Positions 1 through 36,764 of a stretch of 64,000 nucleotides of DNA are shown piece after piece. The notes below the pieces were generated by a model. It saw nothing but the letters and a program-made list of their open reading frames with translations. It was not told where the DNA came from and did no database searches. Position numbers and translations under genes: made by a program. The number at the start of each line of letters is the position of its first letter. Positions within the stretch are counted from its first letter, which is position 1. The stretch comes from Ranitomeya imitator (Eukaryota). Location: contig NC_091282.1 in the NCBI RefSeq assembly GCF_032444005.1, positions 768,056,001 through 768,120,000 of the forward strand, given 5' to 3'.

Positions 1-3000
1 GGTCTCTCTTTCCCATCTCTCTCCGCGCTGTGCGGCCTCTCTTTCCCATCTCTCTCCACGCTGTGCGGTCTCTCTTTCCCATCTCTCTCCGCGCTGTGCG
101 GTCTCTCTTTCCCATCTCTCTCCGCGCTGTGCGGTCTCCCTTTCCCATCTCTCTCCGCGCTGTGCGGTCTCTCTTTCCCATCTATCTCCGCGCTGTGCGG
201 TCTCTCTCTTTCCCATCTCTCTCCGCGCTGTGCGGTCTCTCTTTCCCATCTCTCTCCGCGCTGTGCGGTCTCTCTCTTTCCCATCTCTCTCCACGCTGTG
301 CGGTCTCTCTTTCCCATCTCTCTCCACGCTGTGCGGTCTCTCTTTCCCATCTCTCTCCGCGCTGTGCGGTCTCCCTTTCCCATCTCTCTCCACGCTGTGC
401 GGTCTCCCTTTCCCATCTCTCCCCGCGCTGTGCTGTATCTCTCTTTCCCATCTCTCTCCACGCTGTGCGGTCTCCCTTTCCCATCTCTCTCCACGCTGTG
501 CGGTCTCACTTTCCCATCTCTCTCTGTGCTGTATCTCTCTTTCCCATCTCTCCACGCGCTGTGCGGTCTCTCTTTCCCATCTCTCTCCGCGCTGTGCGGT
601 CTCTCTTTCCCATCTATCTCCGCGCTGTGCGGTCTCTCTCTTTCCCATCTCTCTCCGCGCTGTGTGGTCTCCCTTTCCCATCTCTCTCCGCGCTGTGCGG
701 TCTCTCTTTCTCATCTCTCTCCGCGCTGTGCGGTCTCTCTTTTTCCCATCTCTCTCCACGCTGTGCGGTCTCTCTTTCCCATCTCTCTCCGCGCTGTGCG
801 GTCTCTCTTTCCCATCTCTCTCCGCGCTGTGCGGTCTCCCTTTCCCATCTCTCTCCACGCTGTGCGGTCTCCCTTTCCCATCTCTCCCCGCGCTGTGCTG
901 TATCTCTCTTTCCCATCTCTCTCCACGCTGTGCGGTCTCCCTTTCCCATCTCTCTCCACGCTGTGCGGTCTCACTTTCCCATCTCTCTCTGTGCTGTATC
1001 TCTCTTTCCCATCTCTCCACGCGCTGTGCGGTCTCTCTTTCCCATCTCTCTCCGCGCTGTGCGGTCTCTCTTTCCCATCTCTCTCCGCGCTGTTCAGTCT
1101 CTCTTTCCCATCTATCTCCGCGCTGTGCGGTCTCTCTCTTTCCCATCTCTCTCCGCGCTGTGTGGTCTCCCTTTCCCATCTCTCTCCGCGCTGTGCGGTC
1201 TCTCTTTCCCATCTCTCTCCGCGCTGTGCGGTCTCTCTTTTTCCCATCTCTCTCCACGCTGTGCGGTCTCTCTTTCCCATCTCTCTCAGCGCTGTGCAGT
1301 CTCTCTCCGAGCTGTGCGGTCTCTCCCTTTCCTATGTCTCCATGGACTGTGTGGTCTCTTTCCCATCTCTCTCTGTCCGCACTGTGCAGTCTCTTTCCCA
1401 TGTCTCCATGCACTGTGTGGTCTCTTTCCCATCTCTCTCCGTCTGCACTGCACGGTCTCTTTTCCATCTCTCTCCGCGCTGTGCGGTCTCCCTTTCCCAT
1501 CTCTCTCTGTGCTGTATCTCTCTTTCCCATCTCTCCACGCTGTGCGGTCTCTCTTTCCCATCTCTCTCCGCGCTGTGCGGTCTCTCTTTCCCATCTCTCT
1601 CCGCGCTGTGCGGCCTCTCTTTCCCATCTCTCTCCGCGCTGTGCGGTCTCTCTTTCCCATCTATCTCCGCGCTGTGCGGTCTCTCTCTTTCCCATCTCTC
1701 TCCGCGCTGTGTAGTCTCCCTTTCCCATCTCTCTCCGCGCTGTGCGGTCTCTCTTTCCCATCTCTCTCCGCGCTGTGCGGTCTCTCTCTTTCCCATCTCT
1801 CTCCACGCTGTGCGGTCTCTCTTTCCCATCTCTCTCCACGCTGTGCGGTCTCTCTTTCCCATCTCTCTCCGCGCTGTGCGGTCTCCCTTTCCCATCTCTC
1901 CCCGCGCTGTGCTGTATCTCTCTTTCCCATCTCTCTCCACGCTGTGCGGTCTCCCTTTCCCATCTCTCTCCACGCTGTGCGGTCTCACTTTCCCATCTCT
2001 CTCTGTGCTGTATCTCTCTTTCCCATCTCTCCACGCGCTGTGCGGTCTCTCTTTCCCATCTCTCTCCGCGCTGTGCGGTCTCTCTTTCCCATCTCTCTCC
2101 GCGCTGTTCAGTCTCTCTTTCCCATCTATCTCCGCGCTGTGCGGTCTCTCTCTTTCCCATCTCTCTCCGCGCTGTGTGGTCTCCCTTTCCCATCTCTCTC
2201 CGCGCTGTGCGGTCTCTCTTTCCCATCTCTCTCCGCGCTGTGCGGTCTCTCTTTTTCCCATCTCTCTCCACGCTGTGCGGTCTCTCTTTCCCATCTCTCT
2301 CAGCGCTGTGCAGTCTCTCTCCGAGCTGTGCGGTCTCTCCCTTTCCTATGTCTCCATGGACTGTGTGGTCTCTTTCCCATCTCTCTCTGTCCGCACTGTG
2401 CAGTCTCTTTCCCATGTCTCCATGCACTGTGTGGTCTCTTTCCCATCTCTCTCCGTCTGCACTGCACGGTCTCTTTTCCATCTCTCTCCGCGCTGTGCGG
2501 TCTCCCTTTCCCATCTCTCTCTGTGCTTTATCTCTCTTTCCCATCTCTCCACGCTGTGCGGTCTCTCTTTCCCATCTCTCTCCGCGCTGTGCGGTCTCTC
2601 TTTCCCATCTCTCTCCACGCTGTGCGGTCTCCCTTTCCCATCTCTCTCCACGCTGTGCGGTCTCCCTTTCCCATCTCTCTCTGTGCTGTATCTCTCTTTC
2701 CCATCTCTCCACGCTGTGCGGTCTCTCTCTTTCCCATCTCTCTCCGCGCTGTGCGGTCTCTCTTTCCCATCTCTCTCCGCGCTGTGCGGTCTCTCTTTCC
2801 CATCTCTCTCCGCGCTGTGCGGTCTCTCTTTCCCATCTCTCTCCACGCTGTGCGGTCTCTCTTTCCCATCTCTCTCCGCGCTGTGCGGTCTCTCTTTCCC
2901 ATCTCTCTCCGCGCTGTGCGGTCTCTCTTTCCCATCTCTCTCCACGCTGTGCGGTCTCTCTCTTTCCCATCTCTCTCCGCGCTGTGCGGTCTCTCTTTCC

Positions 3001-4290
3001 CATCTCTCTCCGCGCTGTGCGGTCTCTCTTTCCCATCTCTCTCCGCGCTGTGCGGTCTCTCTCTTTCCCATCTCTCTCCGCGCTGTGTGGTCTCCCTTTC
3101 CCATCTCTCTCCGCGCTGTGCGGTCTCTGTTTCCCATCTCTCTCCGCGCTGTGCGGTCTCTCTCTTTCCCATCTCTCTCCGCGCTGTGCGGTCTCTCTCT
3201 TTCCCATCTCTCTCCACGCTGTGCGGTCTCTCTTTCCCATCTCTCTCCGCGCTGTGCGGTCTCTCTTTCCCATCTCTCTCCGCGCTGTGCGGTCTCCCTT
3301 TCCCATCTCTCACCACGCTGTGCGGTCTCCCTTTCCCATCTCTCCCCGCGCTGTGCTGTATCTCTCTTTCCCATCTCTCTCCACGCTGTGCGGTCTCCCT
3401 TTCCCATCTCTCTCCACGCTGTGCGGTCTCCCTTTCCCATCTCTCTCCGCGCTGTGCGGTCTCTCTTTCCCATCTCTCTCCGCGCTGTGCGGTCTCTCTT
3501 TCCCATCTCTCTCCGCGCTGTGCGGTCTCTCTTTCCCATCTCTCTCCACGCTGTGCGGTCTCTCTTTCCCATCTCTCTCCGCGCTGTGCGGTCTCTCTTT
3601 CCCATCTCTCTCCGCGCTGTGCGGTCTCTCTTTCCCATCTCTCTCCACGCTGTGCGGTCTCTCTCTTTCCCATCTCTCCCCGCGCTGTGCGGTCTCTCTT
3701 TCCCATCTCTCTCCGCGCTGTGCGGTCTCTCTTTCCCATCTCTCTCCGCGCTGTGCGGTCTCTCTCTTTCCCATCTCTCCCCGCGCTGTGCGGTCTCTCT
3801 TTCCCATCTCTCTCCGCGCTGTGCGGTCTCTCTTTCCCATCTCTCTCCACGCTGTGCGGTCTCTCTCTTTCCCATCTCTCCCCGCGCTGTGCGGTCTCTC
3901 TTTCCCATCTCTCTCCGCGCTGTGCGGTCTCTCTTTCCCATCTCTCCCCGCGCTGTGCGGTCTCTCTTTCCCATCTCTCTCCGCGCTGTGCGGTCTCTCT
4001 TTCCCATCTCTCTCCGCGCTGTGCGGTCTCTCTTTCCCATCTCTCTCCGCACTGTGCGGTCTTCTCTCTTTCCCATCTCTCTCCGCGCTGTGTGGTCTCC
4101 CTTTCCCATCTCTCTCCGCGCTGTGCGGTCTCTCTTTCCCATCTCTCTCCGCGCTGTGCAGTCTCCCTTTCCCATCTCTCTCCGCGCTGTGCGGTCTCTC
4201 TTTCCCATCTCTCTCCGCGCTGTGCAGTCTCCCTTTCCCATCTCTCCCCGCGCTGTGCGGTCTCTCTCTTTCCCATCTCTCCCCGCGCTG
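1..4290. repeat. 33-bp pyrimidine-rich, CpG-containing minisatellite (~130 units; runs off the left edge)
   Basis: Unit ggtctctctttcccatctctctccgcgctgtgc repeats with period 33 (31/35-bp variants). Higher-order duplications are visible from shared variant units (886 vs 1900 and 1287 vs 2301, offset 1014). Confidence 0.97.
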
Positions 4291-4368
4291 TCAATCGTCG
4301 TCACCTCATCTACCCCCCATCATGCGTCAGGCCTCGCTCTCTCTTCTGCTGCACGTTCACGCGACAGT

Positions 4369-10701: not shown

Positions 10702-13700
10702 TTAACCTTACGTCTTCCTTTTCAACCTTATATGACAATTTCCCAGCGTTATATCGTGAAATCAGGTCTCTGCTAAAAAAGTGGATGTCTCTATCCCTCC
10801 TAGGTCACATTGCTGCGATTAAAATGTCTATCCTCCCGAAACTGCTTTATCTATTTGAAACCCTCCCCATTCCAGTTCCTCTCAGAGAACTATGATCTAT
10901 ACAGGCAAGCATTATGAGCTTTGTTTGGGCGGGAAAGCATCACAGGATCCCAAAGTTAATTATGTTGAACAGTAGGAATACTGGGGGACAACTTATTCGC
11001 TACTACTGGGCAACTCACTTGCGTAGAATCCCAGCCTGGACCTCCAAGCCTGCCTATACAAAATGGATGGAAATTATTATTATTATTTATTATTATAGCG
11101 CCATTTATTCCTTTACATGTGAGGAGGGGTATATATAATAAAAACAGGTACAATAATCTTGAACAATATAAGTCACAACTGGTACAGGAGGAGAGAGGAC
11201 CCTGCCCGCGAGGGCTCACAATCTAGAAGGGATGGGTGAGGATACAGTAGGTGAGGCTAGAGCTGGTCGTGCAGTGGTTTGCTCGATTGGTGGTTACTGC
11301 AGGTTGTAGGCTTGCCGGAAAAGGTAGGTCTTCAGGTTCTTTTTGAAGGTTTCGATGGTAGGTGAGAGTCTGATATGTTGCGGGGGGACAGGTGGAATAG
11401 TCGGGCAGCACAGTTTAGAATAGATTGGAGTGGTGCGAGAGTGTTAGAGGGGAGGTCACAGAGCAGGAGGTTACAGTAGTCGAGGCGGGAGATGATGAGG
11501 GCATGGACTAGGGTTTTTGCAGATTCTTGGTTTAGGAATGTACGGATCCGTGAAATATTTTTGAGTTGAAGGCGGCATGAAGTGGAAAGGGCTTGGATAT
11601 GCGGTTTAAAGGAGAGATCAGTGTCAAGGATTACCCCGAGACAGCGAGCTTGTGGGACTGGGGAGAGTGGGCAGCCGTTTACTGTAATGAATAGGTTCGT
11701 TGGGGGGGTCGCGTGAGATGGGGGAAAGACAATAAATTCTGTTTTGTCCATGTTAAGGTTTAGAAATCTAGCGGAGAAGAATGATGAAATAGCAGATAGA
11801 CATTGAGGAATTCTGGTTAGTAGGGTGGTGATATCTGGTCCAGAGATGTAGATCTGTGTGTCATCAGCATAGAGATGATACTGAAAACCGTGAGATTCTA
11901 TGAGCTTTCCCAGGCCAAAAGTGTAAATGGAGAAGAGCAGGTGCCCTAGAACTGAACCTTGTGGGACTCCCGACAGATAGGGAGCGAGGTGAGGAGGTGG
12001 TGTGTAAATGGGAGACGCTGAATGTTCAGTCAGTTAGGTATGACGAAATCCAGGATAGGGCTAAGTCTGTGATGCCAAGGGATGAGAGGGTCTGTAGTAA
12101 TAGGGAATGGTCCACTGTGTCAAAGGCAGAGGACAGGTCCAGGAGGAGGAGGATAGAGTAGTGTTGCTTGCTCTTGGCGGTTAATAGGTCATTAGTGACC
12201 TTAGCTAGGGCAGTTTCAGTGGAGTGGTGTGACCAGAAGCCTGATTGTAAGCGGTCGAAAAAGGAGCAGGAAGATAGATGGGAGGACAGTTCCAGATGGA
12301 CGTGTTGTTCCAGTAGTTTTGAGGCAAGTGATATAGGGCGATAGCTAGATCCAGAGGATGGGTCAAGAGAGGGCTTTTTGAGGATAGGTGTGATTGAGGC
12401 ATGTTTAAAGCTTGAGGGGAAAACACCAGTTGTTAGTGATAGGTTCAAGAGATGGGTTAGAGTTGGGATGAAGACTGTGGCGAGGTTTGGGATGAAGTGG
12501 GAAGGGATCGGGTCAAGTGCAGAGGTGGTGAGATGTGATCTTGAGAGTAGAGTGGAAATTCGATTTTCTGTAATACTGGAGAAGTTGGTTTTGGAGGTGG
12601 AGGGCTGGGTAGTTGGGAGGAAGGGCTTTGCGGGTTGTCGACTAAAACTGTCTCAGATGCTCTCAATCTTCTGCTTGAAAAATGAGGCAAAGTCTTCAGC
12701 TGAGATGAGTGGGGAGGGAGGAGGTGCTGGGGGACAGAGGAGAGAGTTGAAGGTGTTGAATAAATGTTTAGGGTTGTGAGACAGGGAGGATATGAGAGAT
12801 GAGAAGTAGGTTTGTTTAGCTGTGGCGAGTGTGGTCTTGAAAATAGTGAGGGACTGTTTGAATGCGATAAAGTGCTCGTTGGAGTGGGATCTTTTCCATC
12901 TCCGCTCTGCAGCCCTGGAAGCTCGCCTCAGTTCTTTGGTAAGGCTGGTGTGCCAGGGCTGTCTGTTGATTGCGAGCTTTGGTATGTGTGAGAGGGGCAA
13001 GAGATTCCAAAGCTGCAGCTATTGTGGTGTTATATAGAGTGGCAGGGTCATCCGCATTGTGTAGGGAACTTATGCCTGTGAGAGGGAGGAGGGATTCAGA
13101 GAGTGAATGTAGATCAAGGTGTTTAAGATTTCTGCGAGTGTGTGCAAGTTTTTGGGTGGGGATTGTAGACAAGGAGTGGAGAGGGAAGAGAATGTGAGTA
13201 GGTTGTGGTCAGAAAGAGGACGAGGTGAGTTAGAGAGGTTAGATAGGGAGCAGAGGCGGGTGAAGATAAGGTCTAATGTGTGACCATCTTTGTGAGTGGC
13301 TGCAGAAGGCCATTGAGTTAGGCCGAAGGAGGAAGTGAGAGATAGAAGTTTAGTGGCAGCTGAGAGGGAAGTGTCAATGGGTATGTTGAAGTCGCCCATG
13401 ATGATAGTGGGGATGTCCGCAGAAAGGAAATGAAGTAGCCAGGTGGTGAAGTGGTCAAAGAAGGTGGTGGCTGGCCCTGGGGGGCGGTAAATGACAGCCA
13501 GTTGGAGGTTGGTGGGGGCATAGATGCGCACAGAGTGCACCTCAGAGGAAAGGAGGGTAACAGAGGGTGGCAGTGGGATTGGGGTGAAGGAGCAGTTATC
13601 TGACAGGAGAAAACCAACTCCTCTGCCATGCTTGCTGCTGGGGTGGGGTGTGTGAGAAAGGTGGAAGCCACCATAGGAAAGTGCAGCAGGAGAGGCTGTG

Positions 13701-13933
13701 TCAGAAGGGGTGAGCCAGGTTTCGGTGATGGCGAAGAAGGAAAGTTTGGTAGTAACAAAAAGATCATGGATGTAGGAAAGCTTGTTGCAGACAGAGCGAG
13801 CGTTCCACAGAGCTCCTGTTAGTGGGGATGGGGAAGTGGGGGCTGGGTGAATGGGTATAAGGTTAGAGAGGTTACGGAAGGTGGTGATAGAGCGTGGATG
13901 GGAGATAGAAATGACTGTGGGGATGTGGTGAGG

Positions 13934-13996
13934 CGGACCAGGATTTGGAGAGATATCACCAGCAGTGAAAAGGAGCAGAGAAAGTGTTAGCAGGTG
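13934..13996 (-). other. 2A-like (StopGo-type) peptide motif ...LLTLSLLLFTAGDISPNPGP in frame with the L2 endonuclease
   Basis: Manual translation: GDISPNPGP = 13960-13934. This is 140 codons upstream of, and in frame with, the 13540 ORF, with no intervening stop. Confidence 0.8.
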
Positions 13997-14480
13997 GGAG
14001 CAGGAGAGGGCATGAGGTGGCTATCTTCTTGGAGACAGAGGATTGTATGTTAAGGAACAGTTTTGAGGAGGAGGTGAGGTGGATGGGGAGGATTGAAGAA
14101 GAGATGAACAGTTCTTTACTAGGTGTAGGGATTAGGGGAGTTAGCAGAAAGTGAAGGATTATAGGGGTGAAAGTGAAAACAAACACAAACATTGTTTACA
14201 GTGACTGTGTCCAGGTACCTTCAGTTCCCTTCAGGTTCTATTCTGGTTTTAATTCTACATTAATCTTCACACTTCTAGGACACATGGGAATCACACTGCA
14301 GACTGAAGTCTATGCAGACTTGTACTATGCAATATATGTACAACTAGGTGCATTCAGGTGTGAAGCACAGAGGAGTGGTCTCTGCTCATCTTGGTCAGAG
14401 AATTAAGGGTGGACCAGAGGCATACAATCAAGCATTGAGTAAACAAGGTCATAAATAACACTGGGGTTAGCTGAAAGGCA

Positions 14481-14952
14481 TACCATGTGAATGCTAGGAG
14501 CAGAGGAAAGTCTGTGTGGAAAGTTGGGTGATGTACTATGTGCACTTCATAGACAGACAAGGCAGGAGAGCAGGCTCGAGAGCTGGGTGCATGAACATAC
14601 CATGTGGATGCTAGGAGCAGAGGAAAGTCTGTGTGAAAAGTTGGGTGATGTACTATGTGCACTTCATAGACAGACAAGGCAGGAGAGCAGGCTGGAGAGC
14701 TGGGTGCATGAACATACCATGTGGATGCTAGGAGCAGAGGAACGTCTGTGTGGAAAGTTGGGTGATGTCCTATGTGCACTTCATAGACAGACAAGGCAGG
14801 AGAGCAGGCTGGAGAGCTGGGTGCATGAACATACCATGTGGATGCTAGGAGCAGAGGAACGTCTGTGTGGAAAGTTGGGTGATGTCCTATGTGCACTTCA
14901 TAGACAGACAAGGCAGGAGAGCAGGCTGGAGAGCTGGGTGCATGAACATACC
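14481..14952. repeat. Four tandem copies of a 117-bp unit in the L2 5' region
   Basis: The unit marker tac(catgtg) recurs at 14481, 14598, 14715, 14832 and 14949. The period of 39 codons keeps ORFs open on both strands. Confidence 0.92.
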
Positions 14953-17145
14953 TGTAGGAAGAATAGATATGCTGGTTAGAGTGCGATGGTGGCATATAGC
15001 AGGGCACAGTCTGAATACATCCTTCTGGTTTTAATTCTAAATTAATCTTCACACGTCTAGGACACACTTATAGGAATCACACAGCAGACTAAAGTCATTG
15101 CAGACTTGTACTATGCAATTTGAAAAACTGTGGCTTGCTCCTGCTCATCCTAACTCCCTGATCTGGAATAATTCCTACAATCCACCAGCGTGTGACCTCC
15201 TTGGCTCGATGGCCCTAACTAAAAGCATTTGGAAAACTTGTTCCAAAAAATTTAAACTTTCGTCCACAAACTCTCCTCTTACCTCATTTTTGTATCACCC
15301 AGGCTTCGCTGATAGTTTGACCCACCCAATGACGGGAGTGTCGTCTCACACAAATTTGTTCAACTTTGCTGATATTATAGATCATAGAACAAGATCCATA
15401 CTCCCATACCTAGAACTAAAAAGTAATCTATCCATACGGGGTCTCTCACTATTATATTCAAATTAGACACTTTGCCTTAACCACTTTCCAGGGTCTGCAG
15501 CTCTCCCTCCCAACCACTTTTGAAAGATTATTAAGAAAAGGTAAATCAACAAAGGGATTAATTTCCACATCATTCAAAAGCCTGATGCAGACTCCCTAAC
15601 GAGACATCCCTACATGCTTTAGTGGGAGAAATATTTGGGAAAAACCTTGACTGATGTAGATTGGGGACTTGTCTGGTCGAGAGCAGCTATATCGGCATCT
15701 TGTGTCACATATAAAGAAAACCAGTACAAGATCCTTAATTTCTGGTATCACACACCTGAATTCTTACATAGGCTGGACCCCTCTATCTCTCCCATCTGCT
15801 GGAGGTGCAACCTTTCGGGAGGATCGATCTTTCACATTTTCTGGGATTGCTCACTGATTAACCCATATTGGAAGCAGGTGCAGGAATTGATAGGCCAGGT
15901 CTTGGAGTTGACATTGCCTCTGGACCCCCAGATTTTTCTCCTTAACATTTTCCCTCCTTCCCTAACAAAAAAACTACTAGGCTCCTCTTCCACATCTTGA
16001 CGGCTGCCAGATGTTTGGTGCAAACTTCTCCCCCATCTACACTTGACTTATATGCCAGAATTAATGATGTTAGAAATTTTGAATGCCACGCAGCCCTGCA
16101 TAATGACACGATTGATAGATCTGATTCTATCTAGCTTCCTTGGGACTTTTTTTTGGCCTCAATAAATACATGAACCCGATTCTCTAGACTATATAGCCGC
16201 TCCCGGTCTTCCCTTTCTGATTTTCAGATACACCCCTCCCCCCCCACCCCCCCTGTTAACGTCCTGTCTTGTGTCTGTTAGGTTGGTCCCCCACTTTTGA
16301 GTATACCGATTAATGTATGCAATGGTTGAACATTCTGCTGGTGTATCATTCGTTATAATGCCACCTAATATAATGTCGGCAACATCTTACTGGTTCATTG
16401 ATTTGACAATTTATTGTTTGACACTGTTTTCTATAAGAAAATGTCGATATTCATGTTGTGTGTGCATCACTTTGGAAATGTTTATTTTCTTTATAAAAAA
16501 TAAATGGTGTTATCAAAATGAGAAATCGCTGTTTAACTTTTAACCCTTATAACTTCCTAACAAAACATTTGGTTCCAAAATTGTGCTGATGTAAAGTAGA
16601 GATGTGGGAAATGTTACTTACTAAATATCTTGTGTGACATATCTATGTGATTTAAGGGTGTGAAAATTCAAAGTTGAAAAATTGCAAACGTTTCAAAATT
16701 TTCGCTAAATTTCCGTTTTTTTCACAAATAATCGCAAGTCATATCAAAGAAATTTTACCTCTAACATGAAGTACAATATGTCTTGAGAAAACTCTGTGAT
16801 GTCAGAATCACTATGATCCATTGAAGCGTTCCAGAGTCATTACCTCATAAAGGGACAGCGGTCAGAATTGTAAAAATTGGCTTGGTCATTAACATGCAAG
16901 ACACCGTTGGGGGTAAAGGGGTTAAACATTTGTTTTTTGCTCAAGAATGAAGCACATTCCATAAACCCATCACCTGAGATTGTAGATGGGACCCCGGATA
17001 GTGATGACTCCTCTGGGTCTACTATCCCCATCCACACAATGGGTCTAGTCGCTGTGAGCACAATGGCTTGAGACCCTGAGATACAGATGAGATTAATAGA
17101 ATGATTGTTTTACATTTACCTTTAGAAATCTCTTGTCTGGTCTTA

Positions 17146-18953: not shown

Positions 18954-20459
18954 ATGTCTGACCATGTGTCTTTAAGCACAACTCAGCGGGTGTTGTTTCA
19001 CTGGCTGTTGTCGCGTCGCTTTGGTCAGCCATATCCGGTGAATGTTGATCCGCGAAGGAGGAGACGAAGATTGTGGGTGCATCCTCTATTGACCCAACGC
19101 CTGAGTAAAGGACATTTTCAGAGGCTCTATACAGCTTTGAGGTCACATCCTGACAAGTTCTATCTGTATAGTCGCATGACCATCAGGACCTTTGATATGT
19201 TGTTGGAGATCATACGTCCATGTATCACGTATTAGGACACAAGGATGCGAAAAGCCATATCTGCTGAGGAGCGTCTTCTCCTAACCTTACGGTATGTATT
19301 CTACATTCTCACATACTGTATGTTGATGATATTTTTTTTTATGTGTTGTGTTCTAGCAGGTTTTTGAAAGTATAGGTGGACATTATGGCACAAGCACATC
19401 AACAAAACTGTGGTCAATGTTGTAGGAAAGTAACCAAGGGAAATGGAAATTTTTATATTGTAAATAATGTCTTTGTAAATATACTATGCACTTGTGCTTC
19501 TTCATGTTTTCTTTGTCCTCATTTAAAAAAACTAATATTATCTTTATTTGTCTTTCAGCTTCCTGTCCACAGGCTTGTCCTATGCGGGACTACACCTTGA
19601 GTTTCTGTTTGGGCGGTCGACAATTTCTGGCATTGTTCATTCAACCTGTTTTCAAATATGGGAGAAACTTCAGGAACTTGTGATGCCTGAGCCCAAACAG
19701 GATGATTGGCTCAAAATCGCCAGTGGATTCCAGAACACTTGTGACTTCCCTAACTGCATTGGAGCTGTGGATGGGAAACATATCAGGGTGCGTAAGCCGC
19801 CGAACTCTGGTTCCCAATTCTACAATTATAAGCAGTTTTTCTCTGTAGTTCTGTTAGCTGTTGCTGACAATAACTACAGGTTTGTAATTGTAGACATTGG
19901 GGCCTATGGGCGAACTGGAGACTCTAGGGTCTTCAATTCGTCCATAATGGGTCGTCGGCTACGTGACAACCAGTTAAACATCCCACCACCACAACAACTC
20001 CCAGGCTCCAATGCGGAAGCAGTGCCTTTTGTTTTGGTTGGAGATGAGGCTTTCCAACTGACGAGGCACGTCATGAGGCCTTATCCCAGGCGCAACCTGG
20101 ACCACGGGCGGAAGGTCTTGAATATGAGACTTTCCAGGGCGCGGAGACTGGTGGAGTGCGCCTTTGGGATTCTTGTTGCCAAATGGCGTGTTCTCCAGTC
20201 TGCCATTCAGCTCAGTGAGGCTACAATCAATGAAGTAATAAAAGCCTGTGTTATTTTGCACAATTTTACCCGCATACATGATTGTTCCTCAGCTAATATA
20301 TGTGATCACCTGATGAACAATGTGATTAGGCCTACCCCATATGTCCCTCCTCCGCGGCGTCCCCTTTCTGGGCTAAAAGTTCGTGATGTATTCACCAATT
20401 ATTTTTTGACTCCTCAAGGTGCGACTCCCTGGCAAGAATATGCAATTTTGCATGTGTAA
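18954..20459 (+). pseudogene. Harbinger (HARBI1-like) DDE transposase, 2 exons (18954-19291, 19559-20459), one premature TAG at 19233-19235
   Basis: A phase-2 GT-AG intron joins LLLTLR to FLSTG. Catalytic motifs GAVDGKH, GDEAF and RLVECAFG are intact. The single in-frame stop is in TY*DTRMRKAI. Confidence 0.9.
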
Positions 20460-34486: not shown

Positions 34487-36764
34487 CTGGTTTCATCCAT
34501 TATAAGTTCATGCTAAAGACATACAATTCTGCCCTTCACCTCTCCAAACAAACCTACTTCAACACCCTCATCACCTCCCTGTCCAATAACCCTAAACGTC
34601 TCTTTGACACGTTCCAGTCCCTACTCAACCCAAGAGAGCAGGCCCCAACCACTGATCTCCGTGCTGACGATCTGGCCAATTACTTCAAAGAAAAAATTGA
34701 CCACATTCGACAGGAAATCATCTCCCAATCTCTTCATACCATGCACTGTCCTCCCTCCCCCACTGCATCTAGTTCACTCTCTGACTTTGAAGCAGTTACA
34801 GAAGAAGAAGTAAGCAGGCTCCTTGCATCTTCTCGCCCGACCACTTGCACCAGTGACCCCATTCCATCACATCTCCTCCAGTCCCTTTCCCCGGCTGTCA
34901 CCTCTCACCTAACAAAAATATTCAACCTTTCCCTCACTTCCGGTATTTTTCCCTCCTCATTTAAGCATGCCATCATACATCCATTACTTAAAAAACCATC
35001 CCTCGATCAAAACTGTGCCGCTAATTATAGACCTGTCTCTAATCTTCCCTTCATCTCTAAACTCCTCGAACGCCTGGTCCACTCCCGTCTTACCCGCTAT
35101 CTCTCAGATAACTCTCTTCTCGACCCTCTTCAATCTGGCTTCCGCTCTTTACACTCTACTGAAACTGCCCTCACTAAAGTCTCTAATGACCTACTAACAG
35201 CTAAATCTAATGGTCACTACTCCATGCTAATTCTCTTGGATCTCTCTGCAGCATTCGACACTGTGGATCATCAGCTCCTCCTCACTATGCTCCGCTCCAT
35301 CGGCCTCAAGGACACCGTTCTCTCCTGGTTCTCCTCCTATCTCTCTGACCGATGCTTCACTGTATGTTTTGCTGGTTCCTCCTCCTCTCACCTTCCCCTT
35401 ACTGTTGGGGTTCCTCAAGGATCAGTCCTAGGCCCCCTACTCTTCTCGTTGTATACTGCCCCTATTGGACAAACAATCAGTAGATTTGGTTTCCAGTACC
35501 ATCTCTATGCTGACGACACCCAATTATACACTTCTTCTCCTGATATCACACCGACCTTTTTAGAAAACACCAGTGATTGTCTTACCGCTGTCTCTAACAT
35601 CATGTCCTCCCTCTATCTGAAACTAAACCTGTCAAAAACTGAACTCCTCGTGTTCTCTCCCTCTACTAACCTACCTTTGCCAGACATTGCCATCTCCGTG
35701 TGCGGTTCCACCATTACTCCAAAGCAACATGCCCGCTGCCTTGGGGTCATCCTTGATTCTGACCTTTCATTCCCCCCCTACATCCGATCACTGGCTCGCT
35801 CTTCTTACCTGCATCTCAAAAACATTTCTAGAATTCGCCCTTTTCTTACTTTCGACTCTGCAAAAACTCTTACTGTTTTACTTATTCATTCTCGTCTGGA
35901 CTATTGTAACTCTCTACTAATCGGCCTCCCTCTTGCAAAACTCTCCCCGCTCCAATCTGTCCTGAATGCTGCAGCCAGGATCATATTCCTCACCAACCGT
36001 TACACCGATGCCTCTACCCTGTGCCAGTCATTACACTGGCTACCCATCCACTCCAGAATCCAGTACAAAACTACTACCCTCATCCACAAAGCACTCCATG
36101 GCTTAGCACCACCCTACATCTCCTCCCTGGTATCAGTCTACCACCCTACCCGTGCCCTCCGCTCCGCTAATGACCTCAGGTTAGCATCCTCAATAATCAG
36201 AACCTCCCACTCCCGTCTCCAAGACTTTACACGCGCTGCGCCGATTCTTTGGAATGCACTACCTAGGTTAATACGATTAATCCCCAATCCCCACAGTTTT
36301 AAGCGTGCCCTAAAAACTCATTTGTTCAGACTGGCCTACCGCCTCAATGCATTAACCTAACGATCCCTGTGTGGCCTATTTATAATAAAAAAAAAAAAAT
36401 AAAAAAATAAAAGTTCCTCGCATCATGTTCTCATACACTTTATGCAGTTAATAGCCCTCTGTGTCTGTACTGCTACATACTTAGGCAGGTAACTGGTTCA
36501 TGCAGCTTTACATGAACACCTGAGCCTTACACTATAGCTGGTCCGAATAACTAAAGCAATCGTTACCATCCACCTCTCGTGTCTCCCCTTTTCCCCATAG
36601 TTTGTAAGCTTGCGAGCAGGGCCCTCACTCCTCTTGGTATCTATTTTGAACTGTGATTTCTGTTATGCTGTAATGTCTATTGTCCGTACAAGTCCCCTCT
36701 ATAATTTGTAAAGCGCTGCGGAATATGTTGGCGCTACATAAATAAAAATTATTATTATTATTAT
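34487..36764 (+). mobile_element. 5'-truncated, young-looking L2 LINE with an uninterrupted 616-aa RT ORF (34510-36360) and full 3' UTR/tail
   Basis: Motifs [54 protein letters not shown]. (ATT)n tail ending at ~36764. Confidence 0.93.

Follow-up and report, generated by a model that had tools for sequence, protein, structure and literature searches.

A serine-form 2A-like motif behind a hydrophobic leader in single-ORF L2 retrotransposons of frogs

Introduction

Does a peptide that resembles a 2A sequence, and carries serine where 2A sequences carry glutamate, still do something for the retrotransposon that encodes it? This question is raised by an L2 element of the poison frog Ranitomeya imitator, which lies on the minus strand of a 64,000-nucleotide stretch of contig NC_091282.1 (the whole of the DNA analysed here, hereafter the window) and in which the peptide GDISPNPGP precedes the APE endonuclease. 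2A-like sequences situated 40-80 residues into ORF2 have been described for single-ORF L2s, including those of Xenopus tropicalis; two Glu-to-Ser versions were inactive in reticulocyte lysate, and a decayed relic of an active 2A was one of the two readings offered (Odon 2013, PMC3708506). Luke et al. 2013 proposed that 2A takes over from ORF1 in braking ORF2. An earlier, sequence-only reading of the window had called this its best candidate for an under-described system, a view that these papers do not support: the same motif is listed at the same place for four X. tropicalis L2s, and single-ORF L2s bearing 2A are the subject of Odon 2013 (PMC3708506). As the motif has been catalogued, the window copy adds little by itself.

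Results

A dead L2 copy retains leader, motif and enzyme domains in order

The element and its parts, all on the minus strand, are as follows.

11073-15120, minus: near-full-length, inactivated single-ORF L2 LINE (5' end approximate; (TAA)n tail at about 11096-11073)
14193-15120, minus: 5' UTR of repeats (four 117-bp tandem units at 14479-14952; a duplicated head of about 95 bp at 15119-15023 and 14333-14241)
14212-14220, minus: candidate splice-donor-like AG/GT site just 5' of the start codon (AG/GTACC in the window copy)
14127-14192, minus: ATG at 14192, which opens MFVFVFTFTPIILHFLLTPLIP; the initial 22 codons of ORF2 are hydrophobic and signal-like
14021-14030, minus: break seen in this copy (near 14028, a 2-base deletion relative to most sister copies; in the motif frame, a TAG at 14023-14021 found in this copy only)
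13961-14002, minus: leucine-rich predicted helix CSHLLTLSLLLFTA ahead of the core motif (low-confidence model; pN/pS 0.43 across families)
13934-13960, minus: 2A-like core GDISPNPGP, with Ser at the canonical Glu position and a predicted skip between Gly (13939-13937) and Pro (13936-13934)
13811-13933, minus: linker of about 41 codons, whose length and (R)NxxNL(I/V) segment resemble the N-terminus of leaderless fish L2 ORF2
13205-13810, minus: APE endonuclease domain (Pfam PF03372, Exo_endo_phos, E 8e-11)
11632-12370, minus: reverse transcriptase (RT) domain, interrupted by a stop codon and a frameshift (PF00078 in two frames)

The window copy is dead and cannot itself make a leader-EN-RT protein. 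It is 90% identical in DNA to an intact relative, L074, over 14193-11380 and 90-94% identical to its sister copies, carries several frameshifts and stops, and is missing about 260 bases near 11380. Between 14020 and 13073 the motif frame has no stop and takes in GALWNARS, ITETWL and VIYRPP, with RT pieces downstream in other frames. The stop-free run of GDISPNPGP (13960-13934) into the APE domain had been reported correctly, and no other NPGP is encoded in any of the window's six frames. The hydrophobic leader opened by the ATG at 14192 likewise lies in the neighbouring frame, as had been proposed, while the single one-base indel invoked to explain this has to be replaced by the 2-base deletion and the TAG. 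No target-site duplication was recognised by eye.

An ORF1 was not found in the 30 copies compared, whose shared 5' sequence consists of tandem repeats and ends within about 1 kb; a repeat-derived upstream ORF at 15067-14357 had no Pfam match. With its variable tandem units and repeated heads (14479-14952 and the 5' ends of L016, L017, L022 and L026) the 5' UTR is monomer-promoter-like, and other families carry other repeat units. Of 15 copies examined, 13, drawn from all seven families, have an AG/GTA site 259-316 nt upstream of the motif. This donor-like site is kept at the ORF start in all seven (loci L002-L097) although their 5' ends differ, and in three of them it follows the ATG (MAVRQGRRQ/V or MAVSQGRSQ/V). 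Among the variant loci read (21 of 21 and 30 of 47) there were no genomic copies spliced from this site, all being point variants. Contigs of seven sequencing runs, which we guess to be RNA, cover the family sequence over the leader and are uninformative on strand and level; the contig matches listed include no joint at the donor site.

Elsewhere in the window, on the plus strand, there is a second L2-type RT fragment (34492-36348), which is 5'-truncated, 57% identical in protein to L074 and has neither APE nor motif upstream, as well as a DDE_Tnp_4 transposase ORF (19536-20456; PF13359, E 6e-30) that is likely a piece of a Harbinger-type DNA transposon. At positions 1-4291 a 33-bp satellite generates an open frame of 1,094 codons, whose SH3_11 Pfam match had no passing stretch and is likely a repeat artefact.

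The element has close counterparts in other frogs

The element has the APE and RT domains (Pfam) of the L2 clade, and by eye it is closest to L2-4_XT of X. tropicalis, with a shared SKLLEQHVH; the RT of L2-4_XT is about 72% identical to that of L074 over 120 residues (a by-eye count). GDISPNPGP itself is found in L2-3_XT, L2-4_XT and CR1-L2-1_XT, and one of the four Xenopus peptides, which include L2-2_XT, reads GDVSPNPGP; the supplement gives the activity of all four as N/A (Rao et al. 2025, PMC12338488). The Xenopus L2s have the same SHLL-leucine helix and their motif likewise precedes the APE domain (PMC12338488; PMC3708506). They differ in belonging to another frog lineage, and the published text consulted mentions neither a signal-like first segment nor evidence of selection. 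Judged by these resemblances, the window element is the poison-frog counterpart of L2-4_XT, preserved as a dead copy of an element whose 2A-like feature is known.

The same leader layout, comprising a hydrophobic start, an ISPSLL block, a basic patch, a leucine helix and GDISPNPGP, is present in an L2 of Bombina bombina (XP_053576277.1). The last 15 residues of the Bombina 20-mer equal the family peptide and the five upstream residues differ; 14 of its 20 positions match the window copy. An APE region from a sister family is 98% identical to a protein of R. imitator over 67% of its length, in keeping with a poison-frog host.

Serine is the conserved state of the motif

The leader, motif and APE domain are open from the ATG in 21 of 29 sister copies, so that in the family, as opposed to the window copy, the motif lies inside a single unbroken ORF. 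All 29 have the ATG, 27 have NPGP and 22 have the exact nine residues. Two expectations of the sequence-only reading, that leader, motif and EN-RT form one ORF and that NPGP is conserved across family copies, are thereby borne out. In the family the motif occupies residues 79-87, and in other families, which have intact ORFs of 1,058 codons at L066, L074 and L093, it follows 78-112 residues.

Throughout the 5.96-Gb genome the codon pattern for GD[IV]SPNPGP gave 4,891 exact matches, in many synonymous spellings and at least seven families, and the reversed control gave none; the motif is not a product of chance. There were no genomic matches to the codons of the Glu form GD[VI]ExNPGP, for which we estimate about one by chance. 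Position-14 codons (the Glu position) starting with A, C or G accounted for 113 matches, many of them Ala. Minor subfamilies carry GDIAPNPGP (many of those 113) and GDLSPNPGP (5 of the 30 loci picked by APE, below), and Gastrophryne has GDIAQNPGP.

Among seven family representatives the nine motif codons had a pS of 0.70 and a pN of 0.015 (pN/pS 0.02, 97% identity), compared with a pN/pS of 0.33 for APE (68% identity), 0.35 for RT and 0.43-0.73 for the rest of the leader, pointing to purifying selection on the motif. As these representatives were chosen by the motif the comparison is circular, and it was repeated on loci picked by an APE pattern alone and on proteins. Fifteen of 30 APE-picked loci had the exact motif, 11 had one change, two were disrupted within it and two were without the segment; all 28 with the segment had Ser. 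In four families that are 52-84% identical, a motif-selected set, GDISPNPGPP is the second-longest invariant run of the first 800 residues. An explanation at the RNA level was rejected because third codon positions vary freely.

Similarity to the APE domain or the linker brought up 240 database proteins. Of these, 37 have D[IVL]xxNP before the APE domain, and the residue at the Glu position is Ser in 24 (many of them frog proteins), Ala in five, His in three, Gln in two, and Leu, Cys and Glu in one each. GDISPNPGP occurs in Leptobrachium, Phyllobates, Bombina, Discoglossus, Rhinophrynus and Mantella, and also in Xenopus, lineages that span the frog tree and about 200 million years. Since Ser is held across frogs and in distant relatives, it is best regarded as a selected state of the lineage and not as decay; the view of it as a sporadic loss of Glu does not hold, Ser being what this L2 lineage normally carries.

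The motif seems to mark the start of the enzyme unit

The distance between the predicted post-skip Pro and the APE Trp is 44 residues in the window's family and 36-52 in other motif carriers. Among 18 leaderless relatives, 11 (including those named from zebrafish and char) start with MC[LF], have 44-47 residues from Met to the APE Trp and share (R)NxxNL(I/V); the other seven have 7 to 48 residues and may include truncated models. The leaderless fish L2s of the ZfL2-2 type (P0142 is presumably ZfL2-2 itself) thus share with the frog elements the L2 APE-RT, the lack of ORF1 and a pre-APE segment of similar length, but have neither leader nor NPGP, and their Met stands about where the frog post-skip Pro is predicted. 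As this boundary matches the leaderless fish start, the motif appears to be where the enzyme unit starts, with the leader as an add-on.

The leader had been described as very hydrophobic, and it does contain the most hydrophobic N-terminal stretch (12-residue hydropathy). Its first segment has a Kyte-Doolittle mean of 2.45 over the best 12 residues and 2.09 over 19, and in eight of eight family copies no other 12-residue window of the ORF is as hydrophobic as those in this segment and in the leucine helix; the helix is short, with a 19-residue hydropathy of 1.0-2.2. Among distant non-frog motif carriers with an upstream Met, 10 of 13 (leaving aside one further protein with its motif at residue 8) have an N-terminal window of at least 2.3, against 1% of 1,689 control spans, and several of these N-termini resemble classic signal peptides by eye. 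When every motif carrier that has a Met upstream is counted, the figure becomes 12 of 28, a drop due to frog gene models whose N-termini are foreign or truncated, and 14 of 62 motif-less L2 relatives also reach 2.3. Signal-like N-termini without NPGP are found in P0030, P0040, P0049, P0055, P0070, P0087, P0098 and others, several of which continue into a YSRxELL-like motif.

Inspected by eye, the family leader has no basic residue before the hydrophobic core (two sister families have Arg3) and is proline-rich after it, and many copies have Gln within the core; a basic n-region and a small-residue (-3,-1) cleavage site are easier to make out in the distant relatives. The family's own leader therefore seems a weaker signal-peptide candidate than those of its distant relatives. 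The literature covered contained no description of a signal peptide on L2 or CR1 ORF2, and strings of the form DISPNPGP were not found in the main texts searched.

A structure model of an intact relative gave a confident APE from residue 121, three low-confidence leader helices, among them the predicted leucine-rich helix at 66-77. The motif was modelled as unstructured and off the APE fold, with pLDDT below 50 over residues 81-105 (from a weak, 22-sequence alignment). By eye, three sister families (L064, L068 and L089) have a YxxxxL-hydrophobic, eIF4E-binding-like motif mid-leader; the window's family has no Tyr there and no such motif.

Skipping by the serine form is doubtful

The canonical 2A core, (D/G/C/N)(V/I)ExNPGP, is broken by Ser at the Glu position, and for this reason we call the motif 2A-like and not 2A. 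Gly before Asp and an upstream leucine-rich helix are present (LLTLSLLLFTAG), the helix being predicted, with low confidence, to end at -10. Viral class A 2As (F2A and P2A) and active retroelement 2As (L1Tc, Ingi-1_AC and STR-51_SP) share with the frog motif G-D-I, NPGP, the upstream leucine-rich helix and the position within one ORF. In contrast to these, the frog motif, 2A-like by sequence only, has Ser for the nearly invariant Glu14 and six (window copy) or seven (usual family sequence) leucines in the first ten residues of the 20-mer, where they have one to three.

Published data on position 14 are strict. In 2,465 viral octapeptides it is almost exclusively Glu, which is stacked on 28S rRNA, and Pro is common at position 15, the x position (Li et al. 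2026); in a saturation screen of P2A and F2A no change of E14 other than E14H kept activity (bioRxiv 2026.09.24.754024). A preprint that screened 3,271 20-mers in human cells (Snell and Matreyek 2026, PMC13405545) includes, by our own count among the 30 of 31 matching table rows listed, 20 peptides of the form GD[IV]SxNPGP. Among the rows listed, all eight of these with at least four leucines in their first ten residues had a phenotype (five in skipping classes, one falloff and two non-skipping; six with reduced protein), and the 12 that had no more than three were all plain non-skipping. The 20-mer identical to XP_053576277.1, and assigned to Bombina by that identity alone, was classed as non-skipping with reduced protein, a pooled screen class and not a blot. 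These labels are noisy: the classifier reclassified 86% of its own training samples, its authors ask for individual confirmation, the peptides were 20-mers in human cells, and in two Ser/Glu pairs the Glu version was not scored as more skipping.

The sequence-only reading had noted the missing Glu, correctly, and had suggested partial skipping. Given that Ser versions are inactive, that E14 tolerates only His and that the closest tested peptide does not skip, skipping by the family motif is doubtful.

Discussion

A motif that breaks the 2A rule and is almost invariant across frogs presumably does something, which argues against the published view of a decayed 2A. Our preferred reading, to which we give a probability of about 0.5, is that in intact members the leucine helix and GDISPNPGP form a nascent-peptide brake that lowers the output of EN-RT, with skipping in a minority of cases. 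The helix and motif would act in the ribosome tunnel, slowing output, and only a minority of ribosomes are predicted to skip at the Gly-Pro bond. The read-through product would be a leader-fused protein that is stalled, sent to a membrane or degraded, whereas the minor skipped product, starting at Pro, would supply free enzyme to copy the RNA of the element itself. To this reading our analysis contributes the single ORF, the failure to find an ORF1, the conservation of the peptide, the two hydrophobic segments and the boundary at the fish start; published reporter data on relatives contribute the reduced protein and the weak or absent skipping. Reduced output is likely on those data, while skipping and routing to the ER are what we infer, and the released-enzyme step has no direct support, as the closest tested peptide was non-skipping.

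Several points tell against the brake. The reduced protein could be a general effect of placing a hydrophobic stretch in a reporter, and reduction by itself does not readily account for an invariant NPGP. The absence of the canonical Glu, the inactivity of Ser versions and the intolerance of E14 to any change but His would also weigh against its skipping component.

A serious if unlikely alternative dispenses with skipping: the first segment would target the protein to the ER and the leucine helix would serve as a stop-transfer anchor, leaving full-length EN-RT tethered on the cytosolic side of the ER or nuclear envelope or later freed at the motif by a host protease. The two hydrophobic maxima in all eight copies, the excess of hydrophobic starts in distant non-frog carriers (10 of 13, against 1% of control spans) and the closest tested peptide's failure to skip are all as this alternative predicts. 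There is also a precedent in the sea-urchin NLR genes, where a hydrophobic 2A-like helix is likewise coupled to secretory targeting with partial recoding and the 2A-like peptide doubles as the signal sequence, but in that case a host gene has the 2A itself as its N-terminal signal, whereas in the frog L2 the hydrophobic segment is separate, lies about 60 residues upstream and belongs to a retrotransposon (Roulston 2016, PMC4981915). The family leader, however, with no basic n-region, a proline-rich stretch and Gln in the core of many copies, makes an indifferent signal, the leucine helix is short for an anchor (19-residue hydropathy 1.0-2.2), and signal-like starts occur in 14 of 62 relatives that have no motif. 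Moreover, the basic patch precedes the leucine helix instead of following it, which by the positive-inside rule is a poor fit to a luminal leader.

We think it improbable that StopGo is efficient in its native setting, with a long upstream context or amphibian ribosomes offsetting Ser and with leader and enzyme made mainly as separate proteins. The G, D, I, NPGP and leucine helix do match 2A anatomy, including a Pro at x, five of eight leucine-rich Ser variants among the rows listed fell in skipping classes, and the boundary coincides with the leaderless fish start; these have to be set against the near-exclusive Glu at viral position 14 and its stacking on 28S rRNA, the inactive Ser versions and the non-skipping nearest peptide. 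More of a long shot is that the motif serves the ORF2 protein structurally or in binding a host partner, for instance as a docking site, and is conserved independently of translation. Strong conservation alongside doubtful skipping would suit such a role, but the weak-alignment model has pLDDT below 50 and no packing on the confident APE, and close fish relatives do without the whole leader, ORF1-less ZfL2-2 being able to retrotranspose in HeLa cells (PMC3880073). Very improbable, finally, is the view that the motif is what remains, without function, of an active ancestral 2A that has decayed. This would account for a non-conservative change at the key residue and the inactivity of Ser relatives but appears already largely refuted by conservation, given saturated synonymous sites (pS 0.70) beside a nearly invariant peptide, the long GDISPNPGPP run in the motif-selected set, and Ser kept across frog families and distant relatives (24 of 37 database motifs, with Glu in one).

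A wider reading, which as a whole we rate unlikely and offer as speculation, would be that single-ORF L2s carry an old and distinct Ser-type class of 2A wired to an ER signal. Drawn by the signal, the translating ribosome and the element's RNA would reach the ER or nuclear envelope, where the leucine helix would stop transfer and stall, and a rare skip would free an EN-RT with an N-terminus like that of the leaderless fish elements, the leader having replaced ORF1 as a device for both dose control and localisation.

What is new here is the coincidence of the predicted skip site with the start of leaderless fish L2s and the signal-peptide-like N-termini of distant relatives, for which we found no description in the print sources covered. 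Conservation of the Ser form together with a signal-like leader is a modest lead. The motif offers a testable case of an ORF1-less LINE that limits its own enzyme, and, should the signal-like leader prove genuine, the targeting of a LINE's translation to membranes would add a new step to retrotransposition.
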